Positions 1 through 40,000 of a DNA stretch of 40,000 nucleotides are shown one piece after another. Position 1 is the first letter of the stretch. Each line of letters starts with the position of its first letter. Below the pieces are notes generated by a model. It was given only the letters and a program-made list of their open reading frames with translations, was not told where the DNA came from and ran no database searches. Origin of the DNA: Pseudomonas aeruginosa. Lineage in GTDB: Bacteria > Pseudomonadota > Gammaproteobacteria > Pseudomonadales > Pseudomonadaceae. Both the position numbers and the translations under genes were made by a program. The stretch spans positions 1,554,773 to 1,594,772 of the forward strand of contig NZ_LN831024.1 of assembly GCF_001457615.1 (NCBI RefSeq), in the 5' to 3' direction.

Positions 1-345
1 GCGGCGAAGAACGCGATCCTGATCGTCGAGTTCGCCCGCACGCTGGAGGCCGAGGGCGCCCGTGCGCTGGAGGCGGTGGTCGAGGCTTGCCGCCTGCGCC
101 TGCGGCCGATCCTGATGACCTCGCTGGCGTTCATCGCCGGCGTGGTGCCGTTGGTCATGGCCAGCGGCGCCGGAGCGGAAATGCGCCAGGCCATGGGCGT
201 CGCGGTATTCGCCGGGATGCTCGGGGTGACGCTGTTCGGCCTGTTCCTCACGCCAGTGTTCTACGTACTGGTACGGGCACTGGCGGCGCGCCTGGAGCGA
301 CGCGCCGGCGGCAGCCTGGCGCATCTGGAGGGAGGCCGTCCATGA
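1..345 (+). CDS. mexQ: RND multidrug efflux inner-membrane transporter, C-terminal fragment (5' end outside window)
   Basis: Frame 1 reads AAKNAILIVEFA..., the conserved AcrB/Mex C-terminal region followed by TM helices. The stop TGA at 343-345 overlaps the next gene's ATG (ATGA). Synteny with opmE supports the call. Confidence 0.85.
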   Translation, partial: AAKNAILIVEFARTLEAEGARALEAVVEACRLRLRPILMTSLAFIAGVVPLVMASGAGAEMRQAMGVAVFAGMLGVTLFGLFLTPVFYVLVRALAARLERRAGGSLAHLEGGRP

Positions 346-1817
346 AGCCATACCTGCGGTCTTCGTTGAGCGCGCTGATCCTGCTGGGCGGCTGTGCCGC
401 GGTGGGGCCCGACTATGCGCCGCCGAGCGCGTCCGCACCGGCCAGCTTCGGCGCGATGCCGGCGGGTATCGATGGCGGTGGCGTGGAGATCGAGTGGTGG
501 CGCGGGTTCGACGAGCCAGACCTGGAGTCTCTGATCCAGCGGGCGCTCGCGGCGAACCTCGACATCGCCCTTGCCGGCGCGCGCCTGGACGAAGCGAAGG
601 CGCTGCTGCGCGAGAACCGCGAAGAGTTCCTGCCGCGCGGCGGCCCGGCGTTCGATTACCAGGCCCGGCGGCGCGGCGAGGTGGAAACACCGGCCGGCCA
701 GCAGCGCGACATCGAGACCTATCGCGGCGCGCTGGATGCTTCCTGGGAAATCGACCTGTTCGGCCGGGTGCGGCGCTCGGTGGAGGCCGCCGAGGCGCAG
801 GCGGGCTCGCGCGAGGCCCTGCTGCGCAACGTGCAGGCGAGCGTCGCGGCTACGGTTGCCATGACCTGGTTCCAGCTACAGGGCATCGAGGCCGAACTTG
901 CGGTGGTCCATGACATCGCCGGCAACCAGCGCGACAGCCTGGAGATGGTCGAACGCCTGGTCAGCGCCGGCTCCGCCCACGAGTTCGACCGGTTGCGCGC
1001 CGAAGCGTTATTGCACAACGTCGAGGCGGCCGTGCCCGACCTCGAACGGCGCCGCGCCGCCACCCGCAATGCGCTGGCCGTTCTCCTTGCGGAAGCCCCG
1101 CAGGCCTTCAGCCCGCCGGTCGCCCGTGCCTCCGGGGAAAGGCTGACGCTCCGCACCCTCGGGGTCGGCGACCCGGCGGGACTGCTGGCGCGTCGCGCCG
1201 ACATCGCCGCGGCCGAACGCAACCTGGCGGCCGCGACCGCACGTATCGGCGTCGAGACCGCGGGGCTGTATCCGCAGGTCGAGGTACGCGGCTCGATCGG
1301 CCTGGTCGCCGGCAATCTCGATGCTTTGGACGAGAGTGGTACGTCCTTCAACGTCCTGAACCCGGTGATTCGCTGGGCGTTACTCGACCGCGGTCGCGTG
1401 CGGGCGCGGATCGCCGCCAGCGAGGCCCGTGCGCAGGAGGCATTGATCCTCTACGACCGGACGGTGCTGCGCGCCCTGCAGGAGACCGATGATGCCTTCA
1501 ACGGCTATGGCGCTGCCGCTGACAGGCTCCGCCTGCGCCTGCTCGAGGCGACGGCCAATCGCGAGGCGGCGCGCCTGGCCCGGGAACGCTTCGTCCAGGG
1601 GGACGGCGAGTACCTGGACGTGCTCGAGGCGGAACGCTCGGACTACCTCAGCCGGCGCGCATTGAGCATCGCGCGCACCGAGCAGCGCCTTGCCGTCGTG
1701 GGTATCTACAAGGCGCTGGGTGGTGGCTGGGAAGCCTGCGCGGGGGCGCGGCGCTGTGGCGTGGCTACCGACGATACCTCTCCAGGCGTGGCACGGCAGC
1801 GCGACAGTCGCTCCTGA
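342..1817 (+). CDS. opmE: Outer-membrane efflux lipoprotein, NodT/OprM family (491 aa)
   Basis: N-terminus MKPYLRSSLSALILLGGC carries a lipobox. The protein has the two-repeat OMF architecture and its start overlaps the mexQ stop. The longer track ORF starting at 87 is an out-of-context extension. Confidence 0.9.
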   Translation: MKPYLRSSLSALILLGGCAAVGPDYAPPSASAPASFGAMPAGIDGGGVEIEWWRGFDEPDLESLIQRALAANLDIALAGARLDEAKALLRENREEFLPRGGPAFDYQARRRGEVETPAGQQRDIETYRGALDASWEIDLFGRVRRSVEAAEAQAGSREALLRNVQASVAATVAMTWFQLQGIEAELAVVHDIAGNQRDSLEMVERLVSAGSAHEFDRLRAEALLHNVEAAVPDLERRRAATRNALAVLLAEAPQAFSPPVARASGERLTLRTLGVGDPAGLLARRADIAAAERNLAAATARIGVETAGLYPQVEVRGSIGLVAGNLDALDESGTSFNVLNPVIRWALLDRGRVRARIAASEARAQEALILYDRTVLRALQETDDAFNGYGAAADRLRLRLLEATANREAARLARERFVQGDGEYLDVLEAERSDYLSRRALSIARTEQRLAVVGIYKALGGGWEACAGARRCGVATDDTSPGVARQRDSRS

Positions 1818-2352: not shown

Positions 2353-2383
2353 GTTGACCTTGTCACGATGGCAGGACTCATGG
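2353..2383 (+). promoter_or_regulatory. MerR/CueR-type promoter-operator upstream of the copper chaperone gene
   Basis: TTGACC -35 (2353-2358), a 19-bp spacer with an imperfect dyad, and CATGGT as -10. It is 23/31 identical to the element at 2944-2974 and ends about 31 nt before the ATG. Confidence 0.6.
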
Positions 2384-2414
2384 TTCGCAGGAGTCAACAA
2401 ACCAGGAGGTTGCG

Positions 2415-2609
2415 ATGTTTTCTTTCCATATTCCGAACATGACCTGCGGCGGTTGTGCCAAGACTGTCACCCGTATCCTGCACGGCGTCGATCCCCAGGC
2501 GCGCGTAGAGACCGATCCCCCTCGGCGCGAGGCTAGGGTCGAGAGCACTCTGGACAAGCACGCATTCCTCGAGGCGTTGAGCGAGGCCGGTTATCCGGAG
2601 GGCCGTTGA
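2415..2609 (+). CDS. copZ1: HMA-domain copper chaperone (64 aa)
   Basis: MTCGGC metal-binding motif (MxCxxC) at residues 9-14, ferredoxin-like HMA length, and AGGAGG RBS at 2404-2409. Position matches PA3520. Confidence 0.9.
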   Translation: MFSFHIPNMTCGGCAKTVTRILHGVDPQARVETDPPRREARVESTLDKHAFLEALSEAGYPEGR

Positions 2610-2943: not shown

Positions 2944-2974
2944 TTGACCTTGCCACCGTGGCAAGCTTTACGGT
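2944..2974 (+). promoter_or_regulatory. MerR/CueR-type promoter-operator of the 5-gene biosynthetic operon
   Basis: TTGACC -35 (2944-2949), 19-bp spacer, TACGGT -10. A perfect dyad CTTGCCAC-C-GTGGCAAG (2949-2965) lies inside the spacer, as in CueR/MerR operators. Confidence 0.7.
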
Positions 2975-3009: not shown

Positions 3010-4047
3010 ATGACTTCAAATCCGTTACAGCAATGCTGCAGTTCTTCCTCCGATATGAATATCCGTTCCCAGCGGACAATGTCGGAACCTGCCCGAAATG
3101 CATCGGCTCTCCTGGCTGAAGCCTTGAAACCCGGTGCCTCCCTGGACCAGATCACGCTCGCGCTCGAGGCGATTCTCGCGGTCACGGCCAAAGGCCTGGG
3201 CGGCGATGCTTCGGCTTACGCGCAGTACCAGGCGTTGCTCCTGGAACTGCACGTAGGCAGCGATCCGCATACGGAGCCGACCCGCCGCTGGATGGCGAGC
3301 CAGGTCTACCTGGTCGAGGATCGTTTCGCTCCCGAGCCGGCCGGTTTCAGCGCCGTCCCGGTGGAGGAGTTCCGCAAGAAGGTCGACGCCGAGATCGAGG
3401 CGCGCAGCCGGGTGCGCCATCCCATGTCGGTCCACCTGTTCCAGGGCACGCCGCCGGTCGAGGACGTGCGCTTCTTCCTGGAACACCATTGGGTCCGTTC
3501 CTACAACTTCTACAGCCTCCTGGCGGAGCTGGCCTTCCGCTTCGAAAACATCGAGGACGCCTCGGTGTTCTACCGCAACCTCTACGGCGAGGCCGGGGCG
3601 GAGACGCCGGAGCGCTCGCACCCCGCGTTGCTGTCCCACCTGATGACCTACTTCGACATTCCGCTGCGCATCGATTTCCCGGCGCTGCATCCGCTGGAGA
3701 AGGCCTACCTCAACAACCGTATCCGTTGCGTGCGGCACACCGATGTCGCCTGGGGCCTTGCGCTCCTGTACGCGGTCGAGTCGGTGAGCTGCGTCAACCA
3801 CCGGCGCATCTACGAACTCCTGCAGCGCCTGGGCGTGCCCGAGCAACCCAGCGAGTTCCATCGCCTGCACGGCACCCAGGACGAGATCGATACCGAGGAG
3901 ATGTGGGCGCTGATCGCCAAGTTCGCGCCGAGCGAAGACTTCCAGCGCCAGTTCATGCAGTCGCTGGCGCGCCACTTCGAAATCAACCGGGCCTACTTCG
4001 ACCTGCTCTGGGAGCAGATGCAGGCGAATTCCCTGGCCATGGCCTGA
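3010..4047 (+). CDS. flcE: Heme-oxygenase-like diiron oxidase/oxygenase (HDO) family protein, paralog 1 (345 aa)
   Basis: Helical protein with dispersed E/H ligand patterns (YGEAG..ERSHP, AVES, HRLHG..DEID), reminiscent of TenA/PqqC/CADD-like iron enzymes. RBS AAGGGTG lies before the ATG at 3010. Paralogous to the next gene; position matches PA3519. The gene-letter assignment is from memory. Confidence 0.8.
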   Translation: MTSNPLQQCCSSSSDMNIRSQRTMSEPARNASALLAEALKPGASLDQITLALEAILAVTAKGLGGDASAYAQYQALLLELHVGSDPHTEPTRRWMASQVYLVEDRFAPEPAGFSAVPVEEFRKKVDAEIEARSRVRHPMSVHLFQGTPPVEDVRFFLEHHWVRSYNFYSLLAELAFRFENIEDASVFYRNLYGEAGAETPERSHPALLSHLMTYFDIPLRIDFPALHPLEKAYLNNRIRCVRHTDVAWGLALLYAVESVSCVNHRRIYELLQRLGVPEQPSEFHRLHGTQDEIDTEEMWALIAKFAPSEDFQRQFMQSLARHFEINRAYFDLLWEQMQANSLAMA

Positions 4048-4079
4048 TGCCTATCCAGAACAAGAACAAGGAGTACAGG

Positions 4080-5066
4080 ATGAATACCCGCAATTTTTCC
4101 CTGCCGCAGTTGCAGAACCTGCCCATCGAAGAAGCACGCATCGTTGCCGATGCGCTGGCCGTCCACGCTACTTCCCGCCAGATCGATAGCGCCGCGAGCA
4201 AGCTGGCCGCGCTGGCCGAGGCAGGGCTCAAGGGCGACCGCCAGGCCTATGCCGCGTACCAGCAGTTGCTCTACGTCCTTTCGTTGAGCGACGACGTGGC
4301 GACCGCCCAGACCCGGCGCTGGCTGGCCCGGGCGATCTATCGCGTCGAAGAGCGTTTCATGCCCGCCGCCGATCTTTCCAGGGCGTTGTCCGAGGAGGAT
4401 TTCCAGAAGCGACTCGAACAGGAAATCGCCGCGCAGTCCCGCGAGCGGCACCCGATGTCGCAGTACGTGTTCTCCGGCTCGGCCTCCCGCGCGCAGCTCC
4501 AGGTGTTCCTCCGTCACCAGTGGTTCCGCACCTTCCGCCTGTACCGCGATGCGGCCGACCTGTTGGTCAACCTGACCGATGTGGACGAGGCCGCGGCGCT
4601 CGCGCGTTACCTCTATGGCGAGTTGGGCGAGGAAGACGAAAAGGGTTCGCATCCGCGCCTGCTGGCCAAGCTGCTCGAGGCCATCGGCCTTGAGGCGGAC
4701 TTCCAGGCCGTGTCGACGATGCCCGAGGAAATCGCCTACCTGAACAATCGCGCCCGTGCCTTCCGGCATGCCGAGGTCGGTTGGGGGCTGGCGGTGTTCT
4801 ACATCACCGAACTGGTCGTGCCGGGGAACCACGAAAAGCTCTATCGGGCCCTGCTCCAGGCCGGCCTGAGCGAGGACCAGGCGGAGTACTACAAGGTCCA
4901 CATCAGCCTCGTACCGCCGCGGGCCAAGCGCGAATGGCAACTCATCGCGCGGCGGATTCCGGACGTGCAGTTCCAGAATGCGTTCCTGACCTCGCTATCG
5001 CAGCACTTCCGTGTGGAAAGGGCCTATTACGACGCGATCTGGGAAGAGATGCAGAGCGTCAAGTGA
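4080..5066 (+). CDS. flcD: Heme-oxygenase-like diiron oxidase/oxygenase (HDO) family protein, paralog 2 (328 aa)
   Basis: Collinear similarity to 3010-4047: RHPMSQYVF vs RHPMSVHLF, YGELGEEDEKGSHPRLL vs YGEAGAETPERSHPALL, AYLNNRARAFRH vs AYLNNRIRCVRH. AAGGAG RBS at 4068-4073. Confidence 0.8.
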   Translation: MNTRNFSLPQLQNLPIEEARIVADALAVHATSRQIDSAASKLAALAEAGLKGDRQAYAAYQQLLYVLSLSDDVATAQTRRWLARAIYRVEERFMPAADLSRALSEEDFQKRLEQEIAAQSRERHPMSQYVFSGSASRAQLQVFLRHQWFRTFRLYRDAADLLVNLTDVDEAAALARYLYGELGEEDEKGSHPRLLAKLLEAIGLEADFQAVSTMPEEIAYLNNRARAFRHAEVGWGLAVFYITELVVPGNHEKLYRALLQAGLSEDQAEYYKVHISLVPPRAKREWQLIARRIPDVQFQNAFLTSLSQHFRVERAYYDAIWEEMQSVK

Positions 5067-5096: not shown

Positions 5097-6530
5097 ATGC
5101 CAAGTCACATTACGGAATCCCGTATACACGGGGGCGCCTACTCGTCCCCGGCATTCGCCGCGATCTTTTCCGATACCAACCAGGTGCGGAGGTGGCTGGA
5201 TGTCGAGCGAGCCTTGGCGGCGACCCAGGCCGAGATGGGCATCATCCCCCACGAGGCGGCGCGGGAGATCGACCGCGCCGCCCAGGTGGAGCGCTTCGAC
5301 CTCACCCAACTGGGCCGCGAAAGCCTGGAGACAGGGCACCTACTGGTGCCTACCATCCGCGCCCTGGCGAGGTCGTGCGAGGGTAGCTGGGGGGAGTACG
5401 TGCACTATGGCGTGACCACCCAGGACATCCTCGACACCGGGCTGATGCTGCAGGTCAAGGAAGCCTGGGGCCATGCGCTCGGGCTCCTGCACTCGATCCG
5501 TGGCCATCTGCTGGCGCTTGCCCTGCGCCACCAGCACACGCCGATGGTTGCACGCACCCACGGGCAGCAGGCGCTGCCCACGACCTTCGGCTACAAGGTC
5601 GCCGTCTGGGTGGATGAAATCGACCGTCACCTGGCGCGCTTCGACGAAGCGCGCGAACGCGTCCTGGTCGGCAACCTGACCGGTGCCGTGGGAACCCTGG
5701 CGTCGTTCGGCGCCCAGGGCTTCGAGCTACAGCGGCGAACCCTGGCCAGGCTTGGCCTCGGCGCGCCGTCGACCAGTTGGCACAGCGCCCGGGACCGGGT
5801 GCTGGAGGTTGCCGGGTTGCTGGTCCAGGTGTCGGTGACGCTGGGCCGGGTGGCGAACGAGATCTACCACCTGCAGCGCAGCGAAATCGACGAGGTACGC
5901 GAGGGCAGCCGGCCGGGACAGGTGGGCAGCAGCACCATGCCGCACAAGCGGAACCCGTCGTCGGTCGACCTGGTCAGCGCGCTGTCGCGGCTGGTGCGGG
6001 CACAGATGGTGGCGCTCACCGATGCCGCGTTCCAGTTGCACGAGCGCGACGGCACCGCCTGGCGCATCGAGTGGGCGGCGTTGCCGGAGCTGTTCGTCTA
6101 CGCCGGCGCCTTGCTGACCCGCATGGAGGCGGTGCTGGCCGAGGGGCTCGAGGTGCGCGAGGAACGCATGCGCGCCAACCTCGACCTGCTGGGTGGGCTG
6201 ATCCTGTCGGAGCGGGTCATGCTCGCGCTGGCGGGGCAGTTCGGCAAGCAGACCGCCCACGAACTGCTCCATGAGATAACCCAGGCCTCCCAGCGGCAGG
6301 GCGTTCCGTTCCGCGAGGCGCTGCTCGGGCAGCCAAGGTTGCGCGGCTGTTTCAGCGCCGAGGCGCTCGAAGAACTGCTCGACCCCGTCGGCTACGTCGG
6401 CCTCGCCGCGGAGATGGTCGACCTGGTCGCCGGCAAACCACGAACCGGCGCGTCGGGCGACAGGCCCGAAGGCGCCGCCTCTTCCCAAGGAAATCCCGGT
6501 CAGTCCCAGTACGTGATGGAGGATAGGTGA
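5097..6530 (+). CDS. flcC: Fumarate-lyase superfamily enzyme (adenylosuccinate lyase / 3-carboxymuconate cycloisomerase-like), paralog 1 (477 aa)
   Basis: Superfamily signature GSSTMPHKRNP is present, with a conserved N-terminal block WLDVERALA..Q. Position matches PA3517. Confidence 0.85.
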   Translation: MPSHITESRIHGGAYSSPAFAAIFSDTNQVRRWLDVERALAATQAEMGIIPHEAAREIDRAAQVERFDLTQLGRESLETGHLLVPTIRALARSCEGSWGEYVHYGVTTQDILDTGLMLQVKEAWGHALGLLHSIRGHLLALALRHQHTPMVARTHGQQALPTTFGYKVAVWVDEIDRHLARFDEARERVLVGNLTGAVGTLASFGAQGFELQRRTLARLGLGAPSTSWHSARDRVLEVAGLLVQVSVTLGRVANEIYHLQRSEIDEVREGSRPGQVGSSTMPHKRNPSSVDLVSALSRLVRAQMVALTDAAFQLHERDGTAWRIEWAALPELFVYAGALLTRMEAVLAEGLEVREERMRANLDLLGGLILSERVMLALAGQFGKQTAHELLHEITQASQRQGVPFREALLGQPRLRGCFSAEALEELLDPVGYVGLAAEMVDLVAGKPRTGASGDRPEGAASSQGNPGQSQYVMEDR

Positions 6531-7981
6531 TGGATGCTGAATCGCTGGAAATGCTTGCCCGTTCCTCGTGCACCGCGCATCCGCAGAGCTTCGGCGGCGC
6601 ACCGGCCGAGTCGTCCTGCAAGCACGAACACAGTCACATCGTTGACTCTAAAACCCATGGCGGCGGCTACGCCGGTCCGGTGAGCCGCCGGATCTTCTGT
6701 AGCCACTGCCGCCTGCAACGCTGGCTCGACGTGGAGGCGGCGCTGGCGCTGGCGCAGGCCGATGTCGGCGTCATTCCGCCCGAGGCGGCGCTGGAGATCG
6801 CGAAGGCCGCCAGGCTTTCGGCCGTCGACCTGCAGCAGATCGCCGACGGCGTGGCCAGCACCGGGCACTCGCTGATGCCCCTGCTGGGCGCGCTGCAAAG
6901 GAACTGCAGCCCCAGCGCGCGCGAGTACGTGCATTTCGGCGCGACCACGCAGGATATCCAGGACACCGCGCAGTCCCTGGAAATGCGCGATGTGCTGGAT
7001 GAAACGGAGCGGGCGCTGGACATCCTCCTGGACCGGCTCTCGGTGCTGGCGAGCGGGACCCGCAATGCGCTGATGGTCGCCAGGACCCACTCGATCCCGG
7101 CGTTGCCAACCACCTTCGGGCTGAAGGTGGCCGGCTGGATCGACGAGTTGCTGCGTCACCGCGAACGCCTGGGCGAGGCGCGCAAGCGGATCCTGGTGGT
7201 GCAACTGTTCGGCGGCGTGGGCACGATGGCCGCCTTCGGCGACGAGGCCATGCTCCTGCTCGAAAGCTTCGCGCGGCGGCTGTCGCTGGACGTGCCGCTG
7301 GCGGGTTGGCACGTGTCCCGCGACCGGGTTACCGAGTTCGTCAGCACCCTGGCCATGGTCACCGCGTCCCTGGCGCGGATCGCCGACGAGATCCGCACCC
7401 TGAACCGCTGGGAGATCGGCGAGCTGGAGGTGGGCTGGACGCAGCAGCAGATCGGTAGCAGCACCATGCCCCACAAGCGCAATCCGGAAGGCTGCGAGCA
7501 GGTCGTGGTGCTGGCCCGGCTGGCCAAGGCCCAGGTCCTGCTCGCGTTGGACGCCATGATCCTCGAGCACGAGCGGGACTACCGCGGCACGCGCCTGGAA
7601 TGGTGTGCGGTGGCGGACGTTTCCCACTATGCGCTGATGGCGCTGTCGCTGCTGACCGACACCATCGACGGGCTCACGGTCCACGACGAGACCATGGCGC
7701 GGACGGCGAATGCATACAGCGATGCGATCTGTACCGAGGCGTTCGTCTTCGAGATGGCCAAGCAACTGGGCAAGAGCAGCGCTTACGAAATCATCTTCGA
7801 GATCACCCAGGCCTGCCAGCGCAAGCGGATTCCGATGCGCCAGGCGCTCGAGTCGGATCCGCGGGTGGGCGCCGTCATGCCGAAGGAAACCCTGGCCAGG
7901 CTGTTCGAGCCGCGGACCCATCTCGGCATGGCCGGGACCATCGTCGACAAGGTGCTGGACAAGGTCGCCAGCCACCACTGA
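6527..7981 (+). CDS. flcB: Fumarate-lyase superfamily enzyme, paralog 2, with Cys/His-containing N-terminal extension
   Basis: GSSTMPHKRNP signature. The start (GTG 6527 or ATG 6530) overlaps the upstream stop TGA at 6528-6530. About 33 extra N-terminal residues relative to the paralog include SSC...SSCKHEHSH. Confidence 0.85.
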   Translation: MMDAESLEMLARSSCTAHPQSFGGAPAESSCKHEHSHIVDSKTHGGGYAGPVSRRIFCSHCRLQRWLDVEAALALAQADVGVIPPEAALEIAKAARLSAVDLQQIADGVASTGHSLMPLLGALQRNCSPSAREYVHFGATTQDIQDTAQSLEMRDVLDETERALDILLDRLSVLASGTRNALMVARTHSIPALPTTFGLKVAGWIDELLRHRERLGEARKRILVVQLFGGVGTMAAFGDEAMLLLESFARRLSLDVPLAGWHVSRDRVTEFVSTLAMVTASLARIADEIRTLNRWEIGELEVGWTQQQIGSSTMPHKRNPEGCEQVVVLARLAKAQVLLALDAMILEHERDYRGTRLEWCAVADVSHYALMALSLLTDTIDGLTVHDETMARTANAYSDAICTEAFVFEMAKQLGKSSAYEIIFEITQACQRKRIPMRQALESDPRVGAVMPKETLARLFEPRTHLGMAGTIVDKVLDKVASHH

Positions 7982-8030
7982 ATCACCCGCCGCCAGAGGC
8001 GGCGGTACTGCACATCAACGGAGAACAAGA

Positions 8031-9104
8031 ATGACAAAGGCTAACGAGATCGAAACCGCGAAGGTCAAGCAGTTTTCAGCACGGATCATGGAGGACTACG
8101 GCAATACCCTGCGCGGCGCGATGCTCTACATCGGCGACCGCCTGGGGCTGTTCAAGGCGCTCGCCCATGGCCAATGGGTGACCCTGGAAGAGCTGGCGCA
8201 GCAGACCGGCTACACCACCCGCTACCTGCGCGAATGGCTGGGCAGCATGGTCACCGGCAACTACCTGGCCTACGATCCGCAGAGCAGGAGCTATCGGTTG
8301 CCGGCCGAGTTCGTCCCGGTGCTCGCCGACGAGGACTCGCCTTATTTCGCCGGCGGGATCATCCAGTTGAGCGTGCCCTTCGTGAGCATGGCGCCGAAGA
8401 TCATCGAGGCCTTCCGCTGCGGCGGCGGTTGCCCCGAGGAATCCTTCCCGCTGGAAACCTGGGAAGGCATGGAGCGCATGACCATGCCCTGGTACAAGCA
8501 CTTCCTCGTGCAGCACTGGATTCCTTCGCTGGATGGCGTCAAGGAAAAGCTCCAGGCGGGTGGCAGCGTGCTCGATTTCGGCTGCGGCAGCGGGCTGGCC
8601 GCGATCATGATGGCCAAGGCGTTCCCCGAAGCCCAGGTCTATGGCTGTGACTTCCACGCGCCGTCCATCGAACGCGCGCGGGCGAACGCCGAGGCCGCGG
8701 GGGTCGGCGACCGGGTGCGCTTCGAGGTCAGCGATTCCGATGCGCTGGCGGGCAAGAAGTTCGACTTCGTCACGACCTTCGTGGTCATCCACGACGCGAC
8801 CGACCCGCAGCAGATGATGAAGGACCTGCGCGAGTCGACCGCCGACGATGGGACCTACCTGATGGTGGAACTCAACCTGTCGCAGGAACTGCACGAGAAC
8901 ATGAACCTGTTCGGTCGCGTGATGTACCCGCAGAGCACGCTGTATTGCATGACCTGTTCGCTGTCCCACGGCGGCGAGGGCCTCGGCGCCTTCATGGGCG
9001 AGGACCGCGCGCGGCAGATGGCCGAGGCCGCCGGCTTCAGTCGCTTCCGCAAGGTGCCTTCGGAGTGGCCGCCGCTGCCGGCGCTGTTCGAACTGCGACC
9101 CTGA
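8031..9104 (+). CDS. flcA: Class I SAM-dependent methyltransferase with N-terminal winged-helix-like domain (357 aa)
   Basis: Motif I VLDFGCGSG and an acidic motif-II-like GCDFH. RBS GGAGAA lies before the ATG at 8031. The upstream part of the track ORF (7710-8030) overlaps flcB and was rejected. Confidence 0.85.
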   Translation: MTKANEIETAKVKQFSARIMEDYGNTLRGAMLYIGDRLGLFKALAHGQWVTLEELAQQTGYTTRYLREWLGSMVTGNYLAYDPQSRSYRLPAEFVPVLADEDSPYFAGGIIQLSVPFVSMAPKIIEAFRCGGGCPEESFPLETWEGMERMTMPWYKHFLVQHWIPSLDGVKEKLQAGGSVLDFGCGSGLAAIMMAKAFPEAQVYGCDFHAPSIERARANAEAAGVGDRVRFEVSDSDALAGKKFDFVTTFVVIHDATDPQQMMKDLRESTADDGTYLMVELNLSQELHENMNLFGRVMYPQSTLYCMTCSLSHGGEGLGAFMGEDRARQMAEAAGFSRFRKVPSEWPPLPALFELRP

Positions 9105-9616: not shown

Positions 9617-10468
9617 ATGAGAGCGACGTCGTTGAGCATCCTCACTTCCGAGCATTCGCTACCTGTAGCCGCTCCTGCGGATAGCCGTCTCGAAATCGAA
9701 TTCCGCGGCGTCGCCAAGCATTTTCCGGGCCGCGGCAAAAGCGCGGCGACCCTCGCGGTGCAGGGGCTCGACCTGGCCATCCGCCGCGGCGAGGTGGTGT
9801 CCATCATCGGGCCGTCCGGTTGCGGCAAGAGCACCCTGCTGAACATGGGGGCGGGTCTCTACGCACCCAGCGAAGGCGAGGTGCGGGTCGGCGGCGAGCG
9901 GGTCAGCGGTCCGGTACGCAAGGTCTCCTTCATGTTGCAGAAGGACCTGCTGATGCCCTGGCGCAGCATTCGCCGCAACATCGAGCTGGGCCTGGAGATC
10001 GACGGTCGCGCGGCCGGCGAACGGCGCGCCATCGCCGAGGAAATGCTGGAGAAGTGTCACCTCGCCGGTTTCGCCGAGCACTATCCGTTCCAGCTTTCCG
10101 GCGGCATGCGCCAACGCGCCGCCCTGGCCCGAACCCTGGCCACCGACCCGCAGGTGCTGTTCCTCGACGAGCCGTTCTCGGCCCTCGACGCGCAGACCAA
10201 GATGATCCTCCAGCAGGACCTGGCGCGGATGCTCTGCGAGCAACGCAAGACCGCGCTGTTCATTACCCACGACCTGGTCGAGGCGATCGCCATGTCCGAT
10301 CGCATCCTGGTGATGAGCGCGCGGCCGGGCACCATCGTCGAGGAGATCGAGGTCGGCCTGCCGCTGCGCGACAACCCGCTGGAGCGCCGCAAGCTGCCGG
10401 AGATCGGGCCGCTGGTCGGGCGCCTGATGACCCTGCTGAAAGTGGGCGAGAGCGCCGAGCTGCACTGA
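9617..10468 (+). CDS. ABC transporter ATP-binding protein (NitT/TauT-type)
   Basis: Walker A GPSGCGKST, signature LSGGMRQR and Walker B LFLDEPFSALD. Confidence 0.9.
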   Translation: MRATSLSILTSEHSLPVAAPADSRLEIEFRGVAKHFPGRGKSAATLAVQGLDLAIRRGEVVSIIGPSGCGKSTLLNMGAGLYAPSEGEVRVGGERVSGPVRKVSFMLQKDLLMPWRSIRRNIELGLEIDGRAAGERRAIAEEMLEKCHLAGFAEHYPFQLSGGMRQRAALARTLATDPQVLFLDEPFSALDAQTKMILQQDLARMLCEQRKTALFITHDLVEAIAMSDRILVMSARPGTIVEEIEVGLPLRDNPLERRKLPEIGPLVGRLMTLLKVGESAELH

Positions 10469-10508
10469 TCGCCGCCTGCCGATCCGAATTCCGTTACAGG
10501 AGCCGCTG

Positions 10509-11516
10509 ATGTCCAAGTCATTGCTCAACGCCGCATTGTGCGGCGCGTTGTTCGCCGCCGGCCTGACCGTCCAGGCCGCCCCGCGGGAAGTCACCTACCT
10601 GCTGCCGGCACCGCCGAACTCGCCGGCCTTCGCACCCTGGGTGATCGCCCGGGAGAAGGGCTACTACGCCGACCTGGGCCTGAAGGTGACCTTCGTCGCC
10701 GGCAAGGGCGGGGTCGACGTGGCCAAGCAGATCGGCGCCGGCAACGCACCGGTCGGCGGCGCCATCGGCGATACGCCGATCGTGGTGCGCGCCAACGGCA
10801 TCCCGGTGAAAGCCGTGGCGGTGCTCGGTGCCGGCGGGGTGACCATGATCGCCACCGATGGCACGGCCGGTATCGACAGCGTCAAGGACCTCAAGGGCAA
10901 GACCCTGACCGTGATGTCCTACTCCGACACCACCTACTACGCCCTGCTGGCGTCGATGCGCAAGGCTGGCCTGGGCAAGTCCGACGTGGACATCCAGGCG
11001 GCCGGCCCATCCGGCGTCTGGCAACTGTTCTCCGCCGGCCGCTCGCAGGCCATGGCCGGCGTGCCGGACTGGGTGGTGAGTGCCGAGGATGCCGGCCGGC
11101 AGGTGAAGTTGCTGCCGGGCAGCGAGGTGTTCGAGAGCATGGCCCAGGCGATCCTCGCCTCGGACGAGGCCATCGAGAAGCAGCCTGAGGTGGTCGGCGG
11201 GGTGGTCAGGGCGACCCTCATGGGCATGCGCGACATCATCGCCGACCCAAGGCAGGCCGCCGCCACCTTCGCTGCCGCGGTGCCCGCCTACAAGGGCCGC
11301 GAGGCCAGCCTGGAACGGGTCCTGCGGCTCTATGTCGAGCACGTCTACGCCAACCAGCAGCCGCTCGGGCACATCGATCCGCAGCGCCTGGACAAGGTTC
11401 GCAGGTTCTACGTCAGCGAAGGCATCGTCGGCCGCGAGACGCCGCTGGACGAGCTTTACACCAACCGTTTCGTCGAGTCCGCCGACCTGACCGCGCAGCA
11501 CGGAGCCCGCCCATGA
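10509..11516 (+). CDS. Periplasmic substrate-binding protein, NMT1/THI5-like (NitT/TauT family)
   Basis: Signal peptide MSKSLLNAALCGALFAAGLTVQA-AP. Size and context fit, lying between the ATPase and the permease. Confidence 0.8.
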   Translation: MSKSLLNAALCGALFAAGLTVQAAPREVTYLLPAPPNSPAFAPWVIAREKGYYADLGLKVTFVAGKGGVDVAKQIGAGNAPVGGAIGDTPIVVRANGIPVKAVAVLGAGGVTMIATDGTAGIDSVKDLKGKTLTVMSYSDTTYYALLASMRKAGLGKSDVDIQAAGPSGVWQLFSAGRSQAMAGVPDWVVSAEDAGRQVKLLPGSEVFESMAQAILASDEAIEKQPEVVGGVVRATLMGMRDIIADPRQAAATFAAAVPAYKGREASLERVLRLYVEHVYANQQPLGHIDPQRLDKVRRFYVSEGIVGRETPLDELYTNRFVESADLTAQHGARP

Positions 11517-12289
11517 ACCTCTCCACCAGACCCTTGCTCGGCAGTCTCGCGCTGTTGTTCCTGTTCCTCGCTGCCTGGCAGTGGGGGCCCGGCCTGCTCG
11601 GCATGCCCGAGTTCGTCCTGCCGGGGCTGAGCCGGGTGGCGGCGGAGGGCGTGGCCATGTGGCACGGCGCCGGACTGCTGGAGCACACGGCGATCACCAG
11701 CCTGGAGATCGTCGTCGGTTTCGCCCTGGGCGCGCTGCTTGGCGTGAGCATCGGCGTTGCCCTCGGCCTGTCGCCGACCACCGAGGCCATGCTCTCGCCC
11801 TACATCCTGGCGCTGCAGATCGCGCCGAAGGTGGCCTTCGCCCCGCTGTTCGTGATGTGGCTGGGCTATACGGTGTACCCGAAGATCCTCATCGCCGTGC
11901 TGATCGTGTTCTTCCCGGTGATGATCAACGTGCTCTCGGCCATCCGCACCGTCGACCCGGACATGATCAACCTGGTGCGCGCGATGAGCGCCAGCCGTTG
12001 GCAGATCTTCCGCCTGGTGGAGTTCCCCTCGGCGATGGCCGCGCTGTTCTCCGGCCTGCGCATCGCCTCCACCCTGGCGGTGATCGGCGTCACCGTCGGC
12101 GAGCTGGTGGGCGGCAACAAGGGCCTCGGCTTCCTGCTGGTGGATGCCGAAGGGCAGGGCAACACCGCCGGGGTGTTCGTCGCCATCGTCATGCTCACCC
12201 TGATCGGCGTGCTCGCCTATGGCGCGGTGGTCTGGGCCGAGAAGCGCGTCCTGCATTACCTGCCGAAAGCCAACCTGGGCACGGTGTGA
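11513..12289 (+). CDS. ABC transporter permease (BPD-type inner-membrane component)
   Basis: Multiple hydrophobic helices and an EAA-like loop (MSASRWQIFRLVEFPSAMAALFSG). ATGA overlap with the upstream gene. Confidence 0.85.
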   Translation: MNLSTRPLLGSLALLFLFLAAWQWGPGLLGMPEFVLPGLSRVAAEGVAMWHGAGLLEHTAITSLEIVVGFALGALLGVSIGVALGLSPTTEAMLSPYILALQIAPKVAFAPLFVMWLGYTVYPKILIAVLIVFFPVMINVLSAIRTVDPDMINLVRAMSASRWQIFRLVEFPSAMAALFSGLRIASTLAVIGVTVGELVGGNKGLGFLLVDAEGQGNTAGVFVAIVMLTLIGVLAYGAVVWAEKRVLHYLPKANLGTV

Positions 12290-12294
12290 ACGCC

Positions 12295-13056
12295 ATGAGC
12301 CAGAACTCTCTTCTCGACGGTCGCCGCGTGCTCCTCACCGGCGGCGCCCGCGGCCTCGGCTACGCCTTCGCCGAAGCGGCGGCACGCGCCGGCGCCCGGG
12401 TGGTGATCGCCGACATCCTGGAGGAACGCGTGCAGCGCTCCGCCCGTGAACTCGCCGAGCAGGGCCTGGATATCAGCGGCCTGCCACTGGACCTGGCCGA
12501 CCCGGTTTCGATCGAGCGCTGCGTGGCCGCGGCGGTCGAGCGCCTGGGCGGTCTCGACGGCCTGGTGAACAACGCCTCCATCACCAACTCCGGCGGCAAG
12601 AGCTGCGAAGAACTGGAGATCGAGGTGTTCGACCGGGTGCTCCAGGTCAACGTGCGCGGCACCTGGCTGATGACCCGTGCCTGCCTGCCGGCGCTGCGCG
12701 AGTCCGGACGTGGCGCGGTGGTCAACCTGGCCTCCGACACCCCGCTGTGGGGCGCGCCCAACCTGCTCGCCTACAGCGCCAGCAAGGGCGCGCTGATCGC
12801 CATGACCCGCAGCCTGGCCCGCGAGCTGGGCGGCGACGGCATCACCGTCAACGCCATCGCTCCCGGACTGGTGGAGGTCGAGGCCACCGAGTACGTGCCG
12901 GCCGCCCGCCACCGGCTCTACCGCGAGCAGCGCGCGCTCCAGCGCGGCCAACAGCCGGCGGATGTCTGCGGCGCGGTGCTGTTCGCCCTTTCCGACCTTT
13001 CCCGCTTCATCACTGGACAAACCTTGCCGGTCAACGGCGGGTTCGTCATGCCCTGA
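12295..13056 (+). CDS. Short-chain dehydrogenase/reductase (SDR), 253 aa
   Basis: TGGARGLG cofactor motif, NNAS, and YSASK (YxxxK) catalytic motif. Start chosen at MSQNSLLDGRR. Confidence 0.9.
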   Translation: MSQNSLLDGRRVLLTGGARGLGYAFAEAAARAGARVVIADILEERVQRSARELAEQGLDISGLPLDLADPVSIERCVAAAVERLGGLDGLVNNASITNSGGKSCEELEIEVFDRVLQVNVRGTWLMTRACLPALRESGRGAVVNLASDTPLWGAPNLLAYSASKGALIAMTRSLARELGGDGITVNAIAPGLVEVEATEYVPAARHRLYREQRALQRGQQPADVCGAVLFALSDLSRFITGQTLPVNGGFVMP

Positions 13057-13069
13057 TCCGGAGGACTCC

Positions 13070-13600
13070 ATGACCGATCTGAACCAGAACGCCCCGAAAT
13101 CCTGGGACCGCCCCGAAGGCGCCAGCTTCGAGGAGTGGTGCAACACCCGCATCGCCCGTTACTCCACCCGCAAGTACGACTGGAACGCGCTGAAGTTCCA
13201 GGCCGACTACGACCCCAGGTTCCGCCGCGCGCAGATGCGCTACATCGGCACCGGCGGCACCGGTGTGGCCAGTGACATGAACACCATTCCGTCCGAGCAC
13301 TTCACCTTTTCCACCATGGTCATCCCGGCGGGTCACGAAGGCCCGCCGCACCTGCACATCGACGTCGAGGAAGTGTTCTTCGTCCTGCGCGGCAAGCTCA
13401 AGGTGGTGCTGGAGAAGGACGGCGAGCGCTTCGAGACCATCCTCACCGACCGCGACGTGATTTCCGTGCCGCCGGGCGTGTACCGCGAGGAGATCAACAT
13501 CGGCGACGAGGATGCGCTGATGTGCGTGATGCTCGGTGCGAAGAAGCCGATCACCCCGACCTACCCGCCGGAGCACCCTCTGGCGAGCATCAAGCGCTGA
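13070..13600 (+). CDS. Cupin-domain protein (176 aa)
   Basis: Cupin motif GHEGPPHLHIDVEEVFFVLRG plus a second-motif region PPGVYRE. GGAGGA RBS at 13059-13064. Confidence 0.75.
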   Translation: MTDLNQNAPKSWDRPEGASFEEWCNTRIARYSTRKYDWNALKFQADYDPRFRRAQMRYIGTGGTGVASDMNTIPSEHFTFSTMVIPAGHEGPPHLHIDVEEVFFVLRGKLKVVLEKDGERFETILTDRDVISVPPGVYREEINIGDEDALMCVMLGAKKPITPTYPPEHPLASIKR

Positions 13601-13608
13601 GGCCGCCG

Positions 13609-14478
13609 ATGAACATGGCGCAGACCCACACCCCCGTCCCGAACCTGCAACAGCGCTTTCCCGAGCGGCTGGTGCAACTGGCCGACGGCGCCCAGCTGGC
13701 CATCCGCGAATGCGGCCAGGGCCCGGTGGTGGTGCTGTTGCACGGCATCGGTTCGGGCTCGGCGTCCTGGCTGCATTGCGCCCAGCGCCTGGCCGCCGGC
13801 AATCGGGTGATCGCCTGGGACGCGCCGGGTTACGGCCTGTCCACGCCGCTGCCGCCGGCCCGGCCCAAGGCCTGCGACTACGCCGCGTGCCTGGAGCTGC
13901 TGCTGGATGCGCTGGGCGTGGAGAGCTGCCTGCTGGTGGGCCACTCCCTCGGCGCGCTGATGGCCACGGCCTACGCCGCCGGCATCGGCGCGGCGCGGGT
14001 GCGCCGCCTGGTGCTGCTCAGCCCGGCGCGCGGCTACGGCGCCGCCGAGCTGCGCGACAGCGGCGCCCAGGTGCGCCGCCAGCGCCTGGAGAACCTGGAG
14101 CGCTTCGGTATCGACGGCATGGCCAGCGAGCGCACCGCGCGCCTGCTCGGCCGCAACCCCAGCGAGGAGGCCCTGGCCTGGGTGCGCTGGAACATGGCGC
14201 GGCTCAACCCCGAGGGCTACCGCCAGGCCGTCGAGCTGCTCTGCGGCGACGACCTGCTGGGCAACGGGCAGCCTGCCGCTCCTTGCGAGGTGCATTGCGG
14301 CGAGGACGACGGCATCACCACGCCCGAGAGTTGCGGCGCCATCGCCCGCCAGCTCGGCGCGTCGTTCTCGTCGATTCCCGGGGCCGGCCACGCCAGCCCG
14401 ATCGAACAACCCGAAGTGGTCGCAGGACGCATCGGCCACGCGCAACGCCTCTCTCTTGAAGGAACCGCCAATGGATAA
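13609..14478 (+). CDS. Alpha/beta-fold hydrolase (289 aa)
   Basis: HGIGSG oxyanion region, nucleophile elbow GHSLGA, C-terminal GAGH. Confidence 0.85.
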   Translation: MNMAQTHTPVPNLQQRFPERLVQLADGAQLAIRECGQGPVVVLLHGIGSGSASWLHCAQRLAAGNRVIAWDAPGYGLSTPLPPARPKACDYAACLELLLDALGVESCLLVGHSLGALMATAYAAGIGAARVRRLVLLSPARGYGAAELRDSGAQVRRQRLENLERFGIDGMASERTARLLGRNPSEEALAWVRWNMARLNPEGYRQAVELLCGDDLLGNGQPAAPCEVHCGEDDGITTPESCGAIARQLGASFSSIPGAGHASPIEQPEVVAGRIGHAQRLSLEGTANG

Positions 14479-15304
14479 GTCAGACGATTCGCAAGACAAG
14501 TACATCGTGCCTGGCCTCGAACGCGGCCTGCTGCTGCTCTGCGAGTTCAGCCGGAAGGACCGTACCCTGACGGCGCCGGAGTTGGCGCGGCGCCTGAAGC
14601 TGCCGCGCTCGACCATCTTCCGCCTGCTGACCACCCTGGAGGCCATGGGCTTCGTCACCCGCAACGGCAACGAGTACCGCCTGGGCATGGCGGTGTTGCG
14701 CCTGGGCTTCGAGTACCTGGCCTCGCTGGAGCTGACCGAACTCGGCCAGCCGCTGCTGAACCGCCTGTGCGACGAGATCCGCTACCCCTGCAACCTGGTG
14801 GTGCGCGACGGCCGTTCGATCGTCTACGTGGCCAAGGTTTCGCCGTCCACCCCGCTGAGCAGCTCGGTGAACGTCGGGACCCGGTTGCCGGCCCACGCCA
14901 CGGTGCTCGGCCGCATCCTGCTGCAGGACCTGAGCCTGGGCGAGCTGCGCGAGCTGTACCCGGAGGAGCAGCTGGAGCAGTTCTCGCCGAACACCCCGCG
15001 CAGCGTGCTGGAACTCTTCGACATGGTCCAGGGCGACCGCCAGCGTGGCTTCGTCCAGGGCGAGGGGTTCTTCGAGGCGAGCATCTCCACCGTCGCGGCG
15101 CCGGTACGTGATCACAGCGGTCGCGTCATCGCGGCGATGGGGGCGACCATCGCCGCCGGGCATATCGACCCGGAACGCATCGAGGGACTGGTCAGCCGGG
15201 TGCGCAGCAGCGCCGACGAGCTGTCGTACCTGCTCGACTACCGCGCCGACGGCCAGGACAACGTTACCCCGATCTTCCGGAGTCGCCCGCATGAAACCGT
15301 ATGA
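14471..15304 (+). CDS. IclR-family transcriptional regulator (277 aa)
   Basis: N-terminal wHTH (LTAPELARRLKLPRSTIFRLLTTLEAMGFV) followed by an IclR effector domain. ATG at 14471 is preceded by AAGGAA and overlaps the hydrolase gene by 8 nt. Confidence 0.9.
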   Translation: MDKSDDSQDKYIVPGLERGLLLLCEFSRKDRTLTAPELARRLKLPRSTIFRLLTTLEAMGFVTRNGNEYRLGMAVLRLGFEYLASLELTELGQPLLNRLCDEIRYPCNLVVRDGRSIVYVAKVSPSTPLSSSVNVGTRLPAHATVLGRILLQDLSLGELRELYPEEQLEQFSPNTPRSVLELFDMVQGDRQRGFVQGEGFFEASISTVAAPVRDHSGRVIAAMGATIAAGHIDPERIEGLVSRVRSSADELSYLLDYRADGQDNVTPIFRSRPHETV

Positions 15305-16088
15305 CCTGTCCGAGGCGGTGGCGGTGGTCACCGGCGGTTCCTCCGGGATCGGCCTGGCCACGGTGGAACTGCTGCTGGAGGCAGGCGCCGCCGTGGCTTT
15401 CTGCGCTCGCGACGGCGAGCGCCTGCGTGCCGCCGAGTCCGCGCTACGCCAGCGCTTCCCCGGGGCGCGCCTGTTCGCCAGTGTCTGCGACGTGCTGGAT
15501 GCGTTGCAGGTGCGCGCCTTCGCCGAAGCCTGCGAGAGAACGCTGGGGTGCGCCAGCATCCTGGTGAACAACGCCGGCCAGGGCCGCGTCTCGACCTTCG
15601 CCGAGACCACGGACGAGGCCTGGAGCGAGGAACTGCAACTGAAGTTCTTTTCCGTCATCCACCCGGTACGCGCTTTCCTGCCGCAACTGGAAAGCCGCGC
15701 CGACGCGGCCATCGTCTGCGTCAACTCGCTGCTGGCCAGCCAGCCGGAGCCGCACATGGTGGCTACCAGCGCGGCCCGCGCCGGGGTGAAGAACCTGGTG
15801 CGCTCCATGGCCTTCGAGTTCGCGCCTAAGGGCGTACGGGTCAACGGCATCCTCATCGGCCTGGTCGAGTCCGGCCAGTGGCGGCGCCGTTTCGAAGCCC
15901 GCGAAGAGCGCGAGCTGGACTGGGCGCAATGGACCGCGCAGCTGGCGCGGAACAAGCAGATTCCCCTGGGACGCCTGGGCAAGCCGATCGAGGCGGCCCG
16001 CGCCATCCTGTTCCTCGCATCTCCCCTGTCTGCCTATACGACGGGCAGTCATATCGACGTTTCCGGAGGGTTGTCCCGTCATGCGTAA
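15291..16088 (+). CDS. Short-chain dehydrogenase/reductase (SDR), 265 aa
   Basis: TGGSSGIG, NNAG, and an atypical active-site region. Overlaps the IclR gene by 14 nt and the next gene by 8 nt. Confidence 0.85.
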   Translation: MKPYDLSEAVAVVTGGSSGIGLATVELLLEAGAAVAFCARDGERLRAAESALRQRFPGARLFASVCDVLDALQVRAFAEACERTLGCASILVNNAGQGRVSTFAETTDEAWSEELQLKFFSVIHPVRAFLPQLESRADAAIVCVNSLLASQPEPHMVATSAARAGVKNLVRSMAFEFAPKGVRVNGILIGLVESGQWRRRFEAREERELDWAQWTAQLARNKQIPLGRLGKPIEAARAILFLASPLSAYTTGSHIDVSGGLSRHA

Positions 16089-17763: not shown

Positions 17764-17773
17764 GGCTCTCGCC

Positions 17774-18577: not shown

Positions 18578-18588
18578 GGACGACTACC

Positions 18589-20073: not shown

Positions 20074-20086
20074 TGAGGAAGACGCG

Positions 20087-39379: not shown

Positions 39380-39603
39380 ACCGTTAGCTTTCGAATTGGC
39401 TAAAAAGTGTTCATCGGCTACGCGTGAACACGGACGCCAATCGTTTGCGCAGGCCGATCTGCAAGACCCACACAAGCCCCTCGCCTGAAGGGGTACGCAT
39501 CCGCCGTGGCTGGTCCGCGCGGATGGCCGCTGAGTTACTTGTCTGCCGTTCGAACAATAAGAACGAACTCTACGTAATGCCGGGATACCCGTGGCAGCGA
39601 TAG

Positions 39604-40000
<397 letters not shown>

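Follow-up and report, generated by a model that had tools for sequence, protein, structure and literature searches.

Identification of the tandem genes

In the stretch of Pseudomonas aeruginosa DNA analyzed here (40,000 nucleotides, hereafter the window), two adjacent genes encode similar proteins of the heme-oxygenase-like domain oxidase (HDO) family, which raises the question of what such a duplicated pair does and whether both copies carry the canonical metal site. The two open reading frames lie on the same strand at 3010..4047 (345 aa) and 4080..5066 (328 aa). A BLASTP alignment of their products (308 residues, 4 gap positions, E 8e-76) shows 40% identity and 58% positives. Their local alignment score of 591 places this similarity far beyond chance, 200 shuffles having given 37 +/- 5.6 with a maximum of 63. 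The description of these genes as adjacent, collinear paralogs in the sequence-only reading was therefore accurate. Third-position GC content (GC3) was 0.84 in both genes and 0.67-0.70 in the long antisense reading frames, indicating that the + strand is the coding strand; the minus-strand frames at 3025..3975 and 3993..4940 were dismissed as high-GC artefacts.

The pair is almost certainly flcE and flcD of the P. aeruginosa fluopsin C locus, and nothing that contradicts this identification was found in our analysis. They open the copper-induced fluopsin C operon, flcEDCBA (PA3519-PA3515). Their products are characterized iron enzymes that shorten cysteine by two carbons en route to the copper antibiotic fluopsin C. 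Earlier publications cover the pair, its pathway and regulation, and the structure of one member; the tandem-paralog observation is real but already explained. The features of the locus are as follows:

1..345, + strand: 3' end of a mexQ-like RND inner-membrane transporter gene, cut by the window start (frame-1 translation ends LERRAGGSLAHLEGGRP, stop at 345)
342..1817, + strand: opmE-like outer-membrane efflux lipoprotein gene (ATG at 342, lipoprotein-type signal MKPYLRSSLSALILLGGCAA)
2354..2384, + strand: site resembling a MerR/CueR-type promoter, ahead of the copZ-like gene (TTGACC and CATGGT separated by 19 nt that hold an imperfect dyad; regex and direct reading)
2415..2609, + strand: copZ-like copper chaperone gene, 64 aa, with an MTCGGC motif (Pfam HMA PF00403)
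2944..2974, + strand: site resembling a MerR/CueR-type promoter, for the flc operon (TTGACC and TACGGT separated by 19 nt; regex and direct reading)
3010..4047, + strand: flcE (PA3519), HOASN plus HDO iron enzyme (Pfam PF14515 and PF14518; exact P. aeruginosa sequence; AlphaFold; Foldseek)
4080..5066, + strand: flcD (PA3518), HOASN plus HDO-fold mononuclear-iron dioxygenase (identity to PDB FlcD)
5097..6530, + strand: flcC (PA3517), adenylosuccinate-lyase-family C-S lyase (Pfam Lyase_1 and ADSL_C; NCBIfam NF006500)
6527..7981, + strand: flcB (PA3516), adenylosuccinate-lyase-family enzyme (Pfam Lyase_1 and ADSL_C; NF006500, 839 bits)
8031..9104, + strand: flcA (PA3515), SAM-dependent N-methyltransferase with an N-terminal winged-helix domain (Pfam Methyltransf_31/12/25 and HTH_65)

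Each of the two proteins consists of a HOASN N-terminal domain (PF14515; E 4.5e-45 in FlcE and 1.3e-50 in FlcD) followed by a heme-oxygenase-like iron domain (PF14518; 55.4 and 55.2 bits, respectively, gathering cut-off 28.9). Together with the crystal structures of FlcD and the superposition of a FlcE AlphaFold model on HDOs, these matches bear out the proposed family membership. Three of the four sequence blocks said to be shared by the paralogs are present as given, i.e., RHPMS (residue 136 in FlcE, 123 in FlcD), YGE.G.E....SHP.LL (192 and 179) and AYLNNR.R..RH (232 and 219). The second block had been mis-transcribed and is (F/V)FL(E/R)H(H/Q)W, which reads FFLEHHW in FlcE and VFLRHQW in FlcD. 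Also overstated was the divergence of roughly 60 N-terminal residues: the part that does not align with FlcD is limited to about 33 residues at the start of the 345-aa FlcE reading, and FlcE 34-106 is 44% identical to FlcD, as compared with 39% in the catalytic domain.

The fluopsin C operon and its surroundings

The window contains, in order, the mexQ end, opmE, the copZ-like gene, flcE, flcD, flcC, flcB and flcA. Between 3010 and 9104, the pair of HOASN-HDO paralogs is followed by two genes of the adenylosuccinate-lyase family and one for a SAM methyltransferase, all co-oriented, and the flcE-flcD-flcC-flcB-flcA order is identical in 25 other genomes from five genera. The flanking lyases, the methyltransferase and the upstream HMA chaperone agree with the published flc locus (PMC13653836, PMC10989515). 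FlcE, FlcD, FlcC and FlcA match exactly P. aeruginosa proteins that are present on at least 1000 contigs, and FlcA is identical to UniProt Q9HY94_PSEAE. Identity between FlcE and FlcD is 33-40%, and among the orthologs of each it is 64-100%; the duplication probably predates the spread of the flc cluster.

FlcC exceeded the NF006500 cut-off (811 bits, cut-off 626), and on gene order and the literature it is assigned a putative role in the release of fumarate and thiohydroxamate. The roles of FlcB and FlcA are taken from the literature (PMC11363339). The start of flcB is uncertain: the candidates GTG at 6527 and ATG at 6530 overlap the stop codon of flcC (GTGATG), and residue 35 is where the family model begins; the 484-aa FlcB reading is absent from the public collection, implying that the annotated start differs.

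Upstream, the position of the mexQ-like gene before opmE is that known from the mexPQ-opmE locus (PA3521-PA3523), a published neighbor of flc (PMC13653836). The opmE name for 342..1817 is likewise suggested by the locus order in the literature, and other Pseudomonas loci have orthologous segments (63-82% identity) ahead of flcE. The copZ-like protein matched the HMA family (E 5.3e-10, 40 bits, cut-off 24.8) and had CopZ as its best NCBIfam match, at a score below the cut-off of that family. Orthologs of it occupy the same place in eight other flc loci.

CueR control of copZ and flc, copper induction and linkage to mexPQ-opmE have been published (PMC13653836). In the whole 40-kb window, a MerR-type regex gave just two + strand matches, at 2354 and 2944. 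The latter site ends 36 nt upstream of the flcE ATG, and its spacer holds the perfect dyad CTTGCCA-ccg-TGGCAAG. Among 25 flc loci from other species, 18 have the same architecture ahead of flcE. CueR probably acts at the putative site at 2944..2974, and the published control of copZ and flc suggests the same type of function for the site at 2354..2384. A generic sigma-70 scan, set to spacers of 16-18 nt, gave no promoter ahead of flcE or the copZ-like gene, as is to be expected given the 19-nt spacers of MerR-type promoters. An Rfam scan showed no RNA family in or around flcE and flcD, and a scan for intrinsic terminators gave fewer matches than shuffled sequences, with none meaningful inside the flc operon.

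The fluopsin C pathway was published by Patteson et al. in Science in 2021 (cited in PMC13108848). For FlcE, we describe the chemistry as given in the same group's 2024 paper (PMC11363339) and in reviews. In the route established by published experiments, FlcB joins L-cysteine to fumarate to yield S-succinyl-L-cysteine (PMC11363339), from which FlcE, as these sources describe it, uses Fe(II) and O2 to remove C1 as CO2 and to N-hydroxylate, yielding an oxime (PMC11363339). FlcD then cuts out the oxime (methine) carbon, i.e., cysteine C2, as formate, by four-electron dioxygenase chemistry that needs no external reductant and at a single iron held by E181, H191, H274 and the substrate oxime (PMC11363339). 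Finally, FlcC takes off fumarate to leave a thiohydroxamate, FlcA N-methylates the product, and two thiohydroxamates chelate Cu(II). The sequence-only reading had anticipated both an S-succinyl-cysteine-type substrate and two distinct oxidative steps on related substrates; consecutive oxidations of S-succinyl-cysteine-derived compounds are indeed what has been published (PMC11363339).

Metal ligands of the two paralogs

FlcD from the window is identical over 328/328 residues to PDB 3BJD, 8W1Q, 9B9M, 9B9N and 9B9O, and is thus the same protein as the published FlcD (PA3518), with no difference. Its gene is preceded by a Shine-Dalgarno-like AAGGAG 7 nt before the start. The published numbering fits exactly, with E181, H191, E244, H274, V278 and R281 in the ligand columns and the succinate-binding residues R121, Q147, R150, Y220, R224 and H251 at their published positions; hence the E-H-X-H-V-R motif of the FlcD subgroup and the succinate-binding residues are all present. 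In FlcE, the aligned columns are E194-H204-E257-H287-D291-D294. The divergence that had been noted near putative ligands therefore reaches the ligand positions themselves (V278/R281 in FlcD versus D291/D294 in FlcE), and the canonical motif of dimetal HDOs, E-H-E-H-(D/E)-H, is absent in both proteins.

This bears directly on the view, favored in the sequence-only reading, that both paralogs are diiron HDOs of the canonical type, with a 3-His/3-carboxylate site in each copy. Both proteins match PF14518, E-H-X-H-(D/E)-H occurs in about 85% of HDO groups (PMC11363339), and a 2024 review still depicts FlcD with a diiron centre (PMC10989515). However, crystallography, Mossbauer and EPR established one iron in FlcD and no diiron species, with E181, H191 and H274 as ligands and V278/R281 standing in for the last two dimetal ligands (PMC11363339); the mononuclear cofactor and the reaction assignments are also backed by PMC13133933 and PMC13108848. 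At the last position FlcE has an Asp, D294, where 9PJ4 and BesC 7TWA have the terminal His of their H-x3-D/E-x2-H motif, so that neither copy has 3 His and 3 carboxylates. We consider the canonical-diiron reading very unlikely: FlcD has an E-H-E-H-V-R set, FlcE an E-H-E-H-D-D set, and "diiron" does not hold for both.

Loss of metal ligands in one copy had been taken as the mark of a pseudoenzyme, and such a loss is present, since two of the six canonical ligand positions in FlcD are non-ligating. Moreover, the HDO RohS is inactivated by an Arg that occurs naturally at the corresponding position (PMC13133933). FlcD is nevertheless a fully active dioxygenase that works with one equivalent of Fe(II), and its E181A, H191A, H274A, E244A and R281A variants are inactive (PMC11363339). 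Active-site closure needs R281 (PMC11363339), with E244/R281 forming the closure pair, and the V278/R281 loop refolds when substrate binds. Ligand loss, then, did not yield a pseudoenzyme, and the idea of FlcD as a dead scaffold has essentially no chance of being correct, having already been refuted by the published enzymology. In addition, the FlcD E-H-E-H-V-R motif and nine active-site residues that we checked (substrate-binding residues and nearby tyrosines) are invariant in all 26 clusters, i.e., the window and the 25 other genomes, which span Pseudomonas to Archangium. This is the pattern of purifying selection on a working active site. FlcD orthologs were taken by tblastn on 31 fetched loci, as the word-indexed homolog search with FlcE gave FlcE-type proteins only.

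A PqqC-like PQQ synthase, a CADD-type folate enzyme or a 3-oxoacyl-ACP synthase, as labelled in PDB 8W1Q and 3BJD and some JGI/NCBI records, is equally implausible, the NCBIfam matches to PqqC (TIGR02111, 24.2 bits, cut-off 240) and CADD (TIGR04305, 30.1 and 21.3 bits, cut-off 200) being weak and far under threshold, with no pqq genes alongside and the genes lying within the flc operon with published biochemistry (PMC11363339). BesC (NF042919) likewise scored 23.5 bits against a cut-off of 500. All four names were rejected on the missed family cut-offs and the published function.

The identification of the pair as FlcE and FlcD leaves the metal site of FlcE. A search for a solved structure of this protein found none. 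Its AlphaFold model (pLDDT 90.3, pTM 0.87, residues 1-25 below 50 and predicted to be disordered) retrieved FlcD as the top Foldseek match (TM 0.83-0.90), followed by the HDOs HrmI (TM 0.74-0.77), CADD, RohS, BesC and SznF, as well as PqqC and UndA. The start codon is ambiguous among 3010, 3055 (330 aa) and 3079 (322 aa), and public annotation includes the 345-, 330- and 322-aa versions. In the model, helix alpha3 is broken at residues 290-294, and both D291 and D294 fall within this break.

From its ligand columns, FlcE is predicted to have a dinuclear site of 2 His and 4 carboxylates, E-H-E-H-D-D. This set is invariant in 26/26 flc clusters, and the closest non-flc relatives of FlcE (39-41% identity) retain His at the terminal position. 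The HDO variants recognized in a 2026 review are 3H/3C, 3H/4C and mononuclear through loss of two ligands (PMC13108848). We tentatively suggest, as a possibility that we hold to be rather less than even, that FlcE represents a subgroup outside these variants, with Asp in place of the terminal His that binds Fe2. Should this be so, its second metal site could be unusually carboxylate-rich or labile, or its nuclearity or metal could differ, and the odd site might relate to the dual decarboxylation and N-oxygenation without external reductant. The substitution may also be mechanistically unimportant. The ligand set may already be visible, uncommented, in Fig. 1B of Simke et al. (2024). In the supplement text of PMC11363339, "E-H-E-H-D-D" or "H-D-D" statements were sought and none was found, and the accessible literature yielded neither discussion of the motif nor documentation of FlcE cofactor nuclearity.

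Taken together, the family, the tandem paralogy and the substrate class could all be recognized from raw sequence. FlcD, whose mechanism and structure were published in 2024 (PMC11363339), overturned the default that an HDO is diiron and that ligand loss means a dead enzyme. For the FlcE cofactor, the conserved Asp-for-His exchange gives a testable prediction.

Comparison with known HDOs

FlcE and FlcD share the two-domain architecture, with flcE directly upstream of flcD. Both have in common with the canonical diiron HDOs (UndA, BesC, the SznF central domain, HrmI, RohS and AetD; CADD with Fe/Mn) the seven-helix heme-oxygenase-like fold and the first four ligands (E and H of alpha1, E of alpha2 and H of alpha3), although sequence identity to these enzymes is only 10-19%. 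Like SznF, HrmI and RohS, FlcE N-oxygenates, and like UndA and BesC it breaks a C-C bond. The two paralogs depart from the canonical enzymes in having an additional N-terminal domain, the helical HOASN domain. FlcD, moreover, is mononuclear and lacks the Fe2 ligands, and in FlcE the terminal His is replaced by Asp.

Nannocystis and other Myxococcales (loci L026-L031) have single FlcE-like HDOs with the same HOASN and HDO domains. These proteins are 39-41% identical to FlcE and are FlcE-like at eight of the nine positions aligned to the checked FlcD active-site residues. They differ from FlcE in having the canonical E-H-E-H-D-H set and Gly at the position of R134. Their loci lack a paralog partner, lyases and flcA; the neighbors in L026 encode an O-methyltransferase, a PLP enzyme, an MFS transporter and a glycosyltransferase. 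In contrast to FlcE, these single HDOs belong to a different, uncharacterized pathway.

Identity of the gene pair and its locus

FlcD of the window matches PDB entries 3BJD and 8W1Q/9B9M/9B9N/9B9O, described in Foldseek as Pseudomonas aeruginosa FlcD, at every one of its 328 residues (100% identity), and the locus is mexPQ-opmE / copZ1 / flcEDCBA (PA3523-PA3515), complete as published (PMC10989515, PMC13653836). Exact copies of FlcE, FlcD, the adjoining lyase and the methyltransferase (UniProt Q9HY94_PSEAE) are recorded in P. aeruginosa, each from at least 1000 contigs. The PDB chain names "Putative 3-oxoacyl-(acyl-carrier-protein) synthase" and "PQQ biosynthesis protein C" (3BJD, 8W1Q) were set aside as misleading legacy labels on FlcD; they have also been carried over into the annotation of both proteins in genomes.

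Features of the window, with strand where assigned
Upstream of the outer-membrane lipoprotein gene: 3' end of an RND pump gene
342..1817: outer-membrane lipoprotein gene
2354..2384, +: MerR/CueR-type promoter-like site before the copZ-like gene (TTGACC, 19-nt spacer with dyad, TAnnnT-like -10)
2415..2609: HMA copper chaperone, 64 aa
2944..2974, +: MerR/CueR-type promoter-like site before flcE (TTGACC, 19-nt spacer, TACGGT)
3010..4047, +: flcE ORF, 345 codons
4080..5066, +: flcD ORF, 328 codons
5097..6530: first adenylosuccinate-lyase-family gene (NF006500, 811 bits)
~6527..7981: second adenylosuccinate-lyase-family gene (NF006500, 839 bits)
8031..9104: SAM methyltransferase gene
9617..21052, +, downstream of flcA: NMT1-type ABC transporter (ATPase, binding protein, permease), SDR, alpha/beta hydrolase, IclR regulator, second SDR, ThDP enzyme, aldehyde dehydrogenase, glyoxalase-fold protein
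39537..39646, +: RhlA_thermometer (Rfam RF02758) of the rhlA 5'-UTR, 136.8 bits vs gathering score 85

The RhlA_thermometer match places the end of the window at the rhlA 5' UTR, which agrees with a stretch of P. aeruginosa chromosome that extends from mexQ to rhlA. The metabolic genes at 9617..21052 showed no evident link to flc.

FlcE and FlcD are paralogs

By BLASTP, FlcE and FlcD shared 40% identity over 308 residues (E 8e-76), and their local alignment score was 591 vs 37 +/- 5.6 in shuffles (n=200), confirming the adjacent paralogous pair at 3010-5066 that had been proposed from the sequence alone. Both carry HOASN (PF14515) at the N-terminus (Pfam E 4.5e-45 in FlcE and 1.3e-50 in FlcD), and, after it, PF14518, "iron-containing redox enzyme" (55 bits against a cut-off of 28.9 in each case). 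Three of the four sequence blocks described as shared were exact, but the fourth reads (F/V)FL(E/R)H(H/Q)W rather than F(F/V)L. The N-terminal divergence, put at roughly 60 residues, was overstated: the unaligned stretch covers only residues 1 to ~33 of the longest version of FlcE, and FlcE 34-106 is 44% identical to FlcD.

GC3 was 0.84 in flcE and flcD vs 0.67-0.70 in the long ORFs antisense to them, which identifies the + strand as coding and rules out the antisense ORFs. A good Shine-Dalgarno motif, AAGGAG, lies 7 nt upstream of the flcD ATG; the flcE ATG at 3010 has a weaker one (AAGGGTG). The flcE start is ambiguous among 3010, 3055 and 3079, public records carrying 345-, 330- and 322-aa versions and, in one case, 367 aa from TTG 2944. 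Of the three, 3010 alone is preceded by a Shine-Dalgarno-like sequence, though MNIRSQ at 3055 is similar to MNTRNF, with which FlcD begins. At 4045..4049 the flcE stop TGA overlaps ATG 4047, upstream of and in frame with flcD, although crystallised and annotated FlcD begins at 4080. The flcC stop likewise overlaps candidate flcB starts (GTGATG, 6527..6533). These two junctions suggest translational coupling. A 484-aa reading of flcB is absent from the public collection, so the annotated start differs.

Predicted HDO fold of FlcE

The AlphaFold2 model of FlcE (alignment of 43 sequences) was all-helical and confident (mean pLDDT 90.3, pTM 0.87; residues 1-25 below 50). Using Foldseek, its best PDB match was FlcD (TM 0.83-0.90, rmsd 2.2-2.9 A), followed by the diiron N-oxygenase HrmI (TM 0.74-0.77, N-terminal domain included) and then, in order, CADD, RohS, BesC, PqqC, SznF and UndA. 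Because of these matches a non-metalloenzyme helical family does not apply, and the proposed membership of the heme-oxygenase-like domain oxidases (HDOs) is upheld by the model and by PF14518 in both proteins.

Neither paralog retains the full canonical set of metal ligands

In a global alignment, E181-H191-E244-H274-V278-R281 of FlcD correspond to E194-H204-E257-H287-D291-D294 of FlcE; neither paralog therefore has the 3-His/3-carboxylate set that the sequence-only reading expected in both. FlcD is also not a diiron enzyme as supposed: crystal structures, Mossbauer and EPR established that only one iron is present, its ligands being E181, H191, H274 and the substrate oxime, with V278 and R281 at the last two dimetal ligand positions; R281 moves ~10 A, pairs with E244 and shuts the active site (PMC11363339). 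All six residues, and the succinate-binding R121, Q147, R150, Y220, R224 and H251, lie at their published numbers in the window FlcD.

In FlcE, five canonical ligand positions out of six are conserved, and Asp stands in place of the terminal His. By phmmer, its H287-x3-D291-x2-D294 lies opposite H-x3-D-x2-H of 4-aminobenzoate synthase (9PJ4) and H-x3-E-x2-H of BesC (7TWA), both solved canonical HDOs, and helix alpha3 of the model is broken at 290-294, the site of D291 and D294. D294 is present in 57 of 60 full-length FlcE homologs, the three most distant (40-44% identical) having His. No discussion of this conserved substitution was found in the literature examined; we put it forward only as a low-stakes prediction and claim no discovery.

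Conservation of flc clusters

Scanning one genome per species yielded 31 loci, 25 of them with identical flcE-flcD-flcC-flcB-flcA order (Pseudomonas spp., Pseudoduganella, Serratia aquatilis, Lysobacter spp., Archangium); in many Pseudomonas a copZ-like gene and opmE lie upstream. Across these 25 and the window (n=26), E-H-E-H-V-R with all nine checked active-site residues of FlcD, and E-H-E-H-D-D of FlcE, were present in 26/26, so both copies are under purifying selection. Such selection argues against the pseudoenzyme that ligand loss in one copy had been taken to imply, a view already contradicted by the well-characterised activity of FlcD. Orthologs were 64-98% (FlcE) and 67-100% (FlcD) identical vs only 33-40% between FlcE and FlcD; the duplication is thus older than the spread of the cluster.

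One FlcE homolog record (P0076, 411 aa, Logan assembly) combines HMA (PF00403), HOASN and HDO domains, and may represent a copZ-flcE fusion, or else a gene called straight through the intergenic region.

Candidate promoters

A regex for MerR-type promoters (TTGAC[CT]-N19-[TC]A-N3-T) had only two + strand matches in the 40 kb window, 2354..2384 and 2944..2974, the latter with a perfect dyad, CTTGCCA-ccg-TGGCAAG, in its spacer. The flcE-upstream site is kept in 18/25 flc loci from other species, with no regex match in Lysobacter or Archangium. CueR controls flc, copZ and mexPQ-opmE (PMC13653836), and we infer that both sites are putative CueR operators.

Comparison with known systems

A 2026 review recognises 3H/3C, 3H/4C and FlcD-type mononuclear HDO sites (PMC13108848); the E-H-E-H-D-D set of FlcE is not among them. 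This review and another paper that followed the FlcD study PMC11363339 regard FlcD as the mononuclear exception within the HDOs (PMC13133933, PMC13108848). The remaining six loci (L026-L031, Nannocystis/Myxococcales) encode one FlcE-like HOASN-HDO without flc partners. These proteins, the closest relatives outside flc clusters, are 39-41% identical to FlcE, and have canonical E-H-E-H-D-H, unlike the E-H-E-H-D-D of flc clusters, and Gly at the FlcE R134 position. In L026 the gene (8001..8960) neighbours an O-methyltransferase, a PLP-dependent enzyme, an MFS transporter and a glycosyltransferase, and such loci look like a different, uncharacterised pathway.

The flc system itself is already known, the pathway since 2021 and the FlcD structure and mechanism since 2024. 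[quoted passage not shown] The successive FlcE and FlcD steps bear out both the two sequential oxidations and the substrate class anticipated for the pair.
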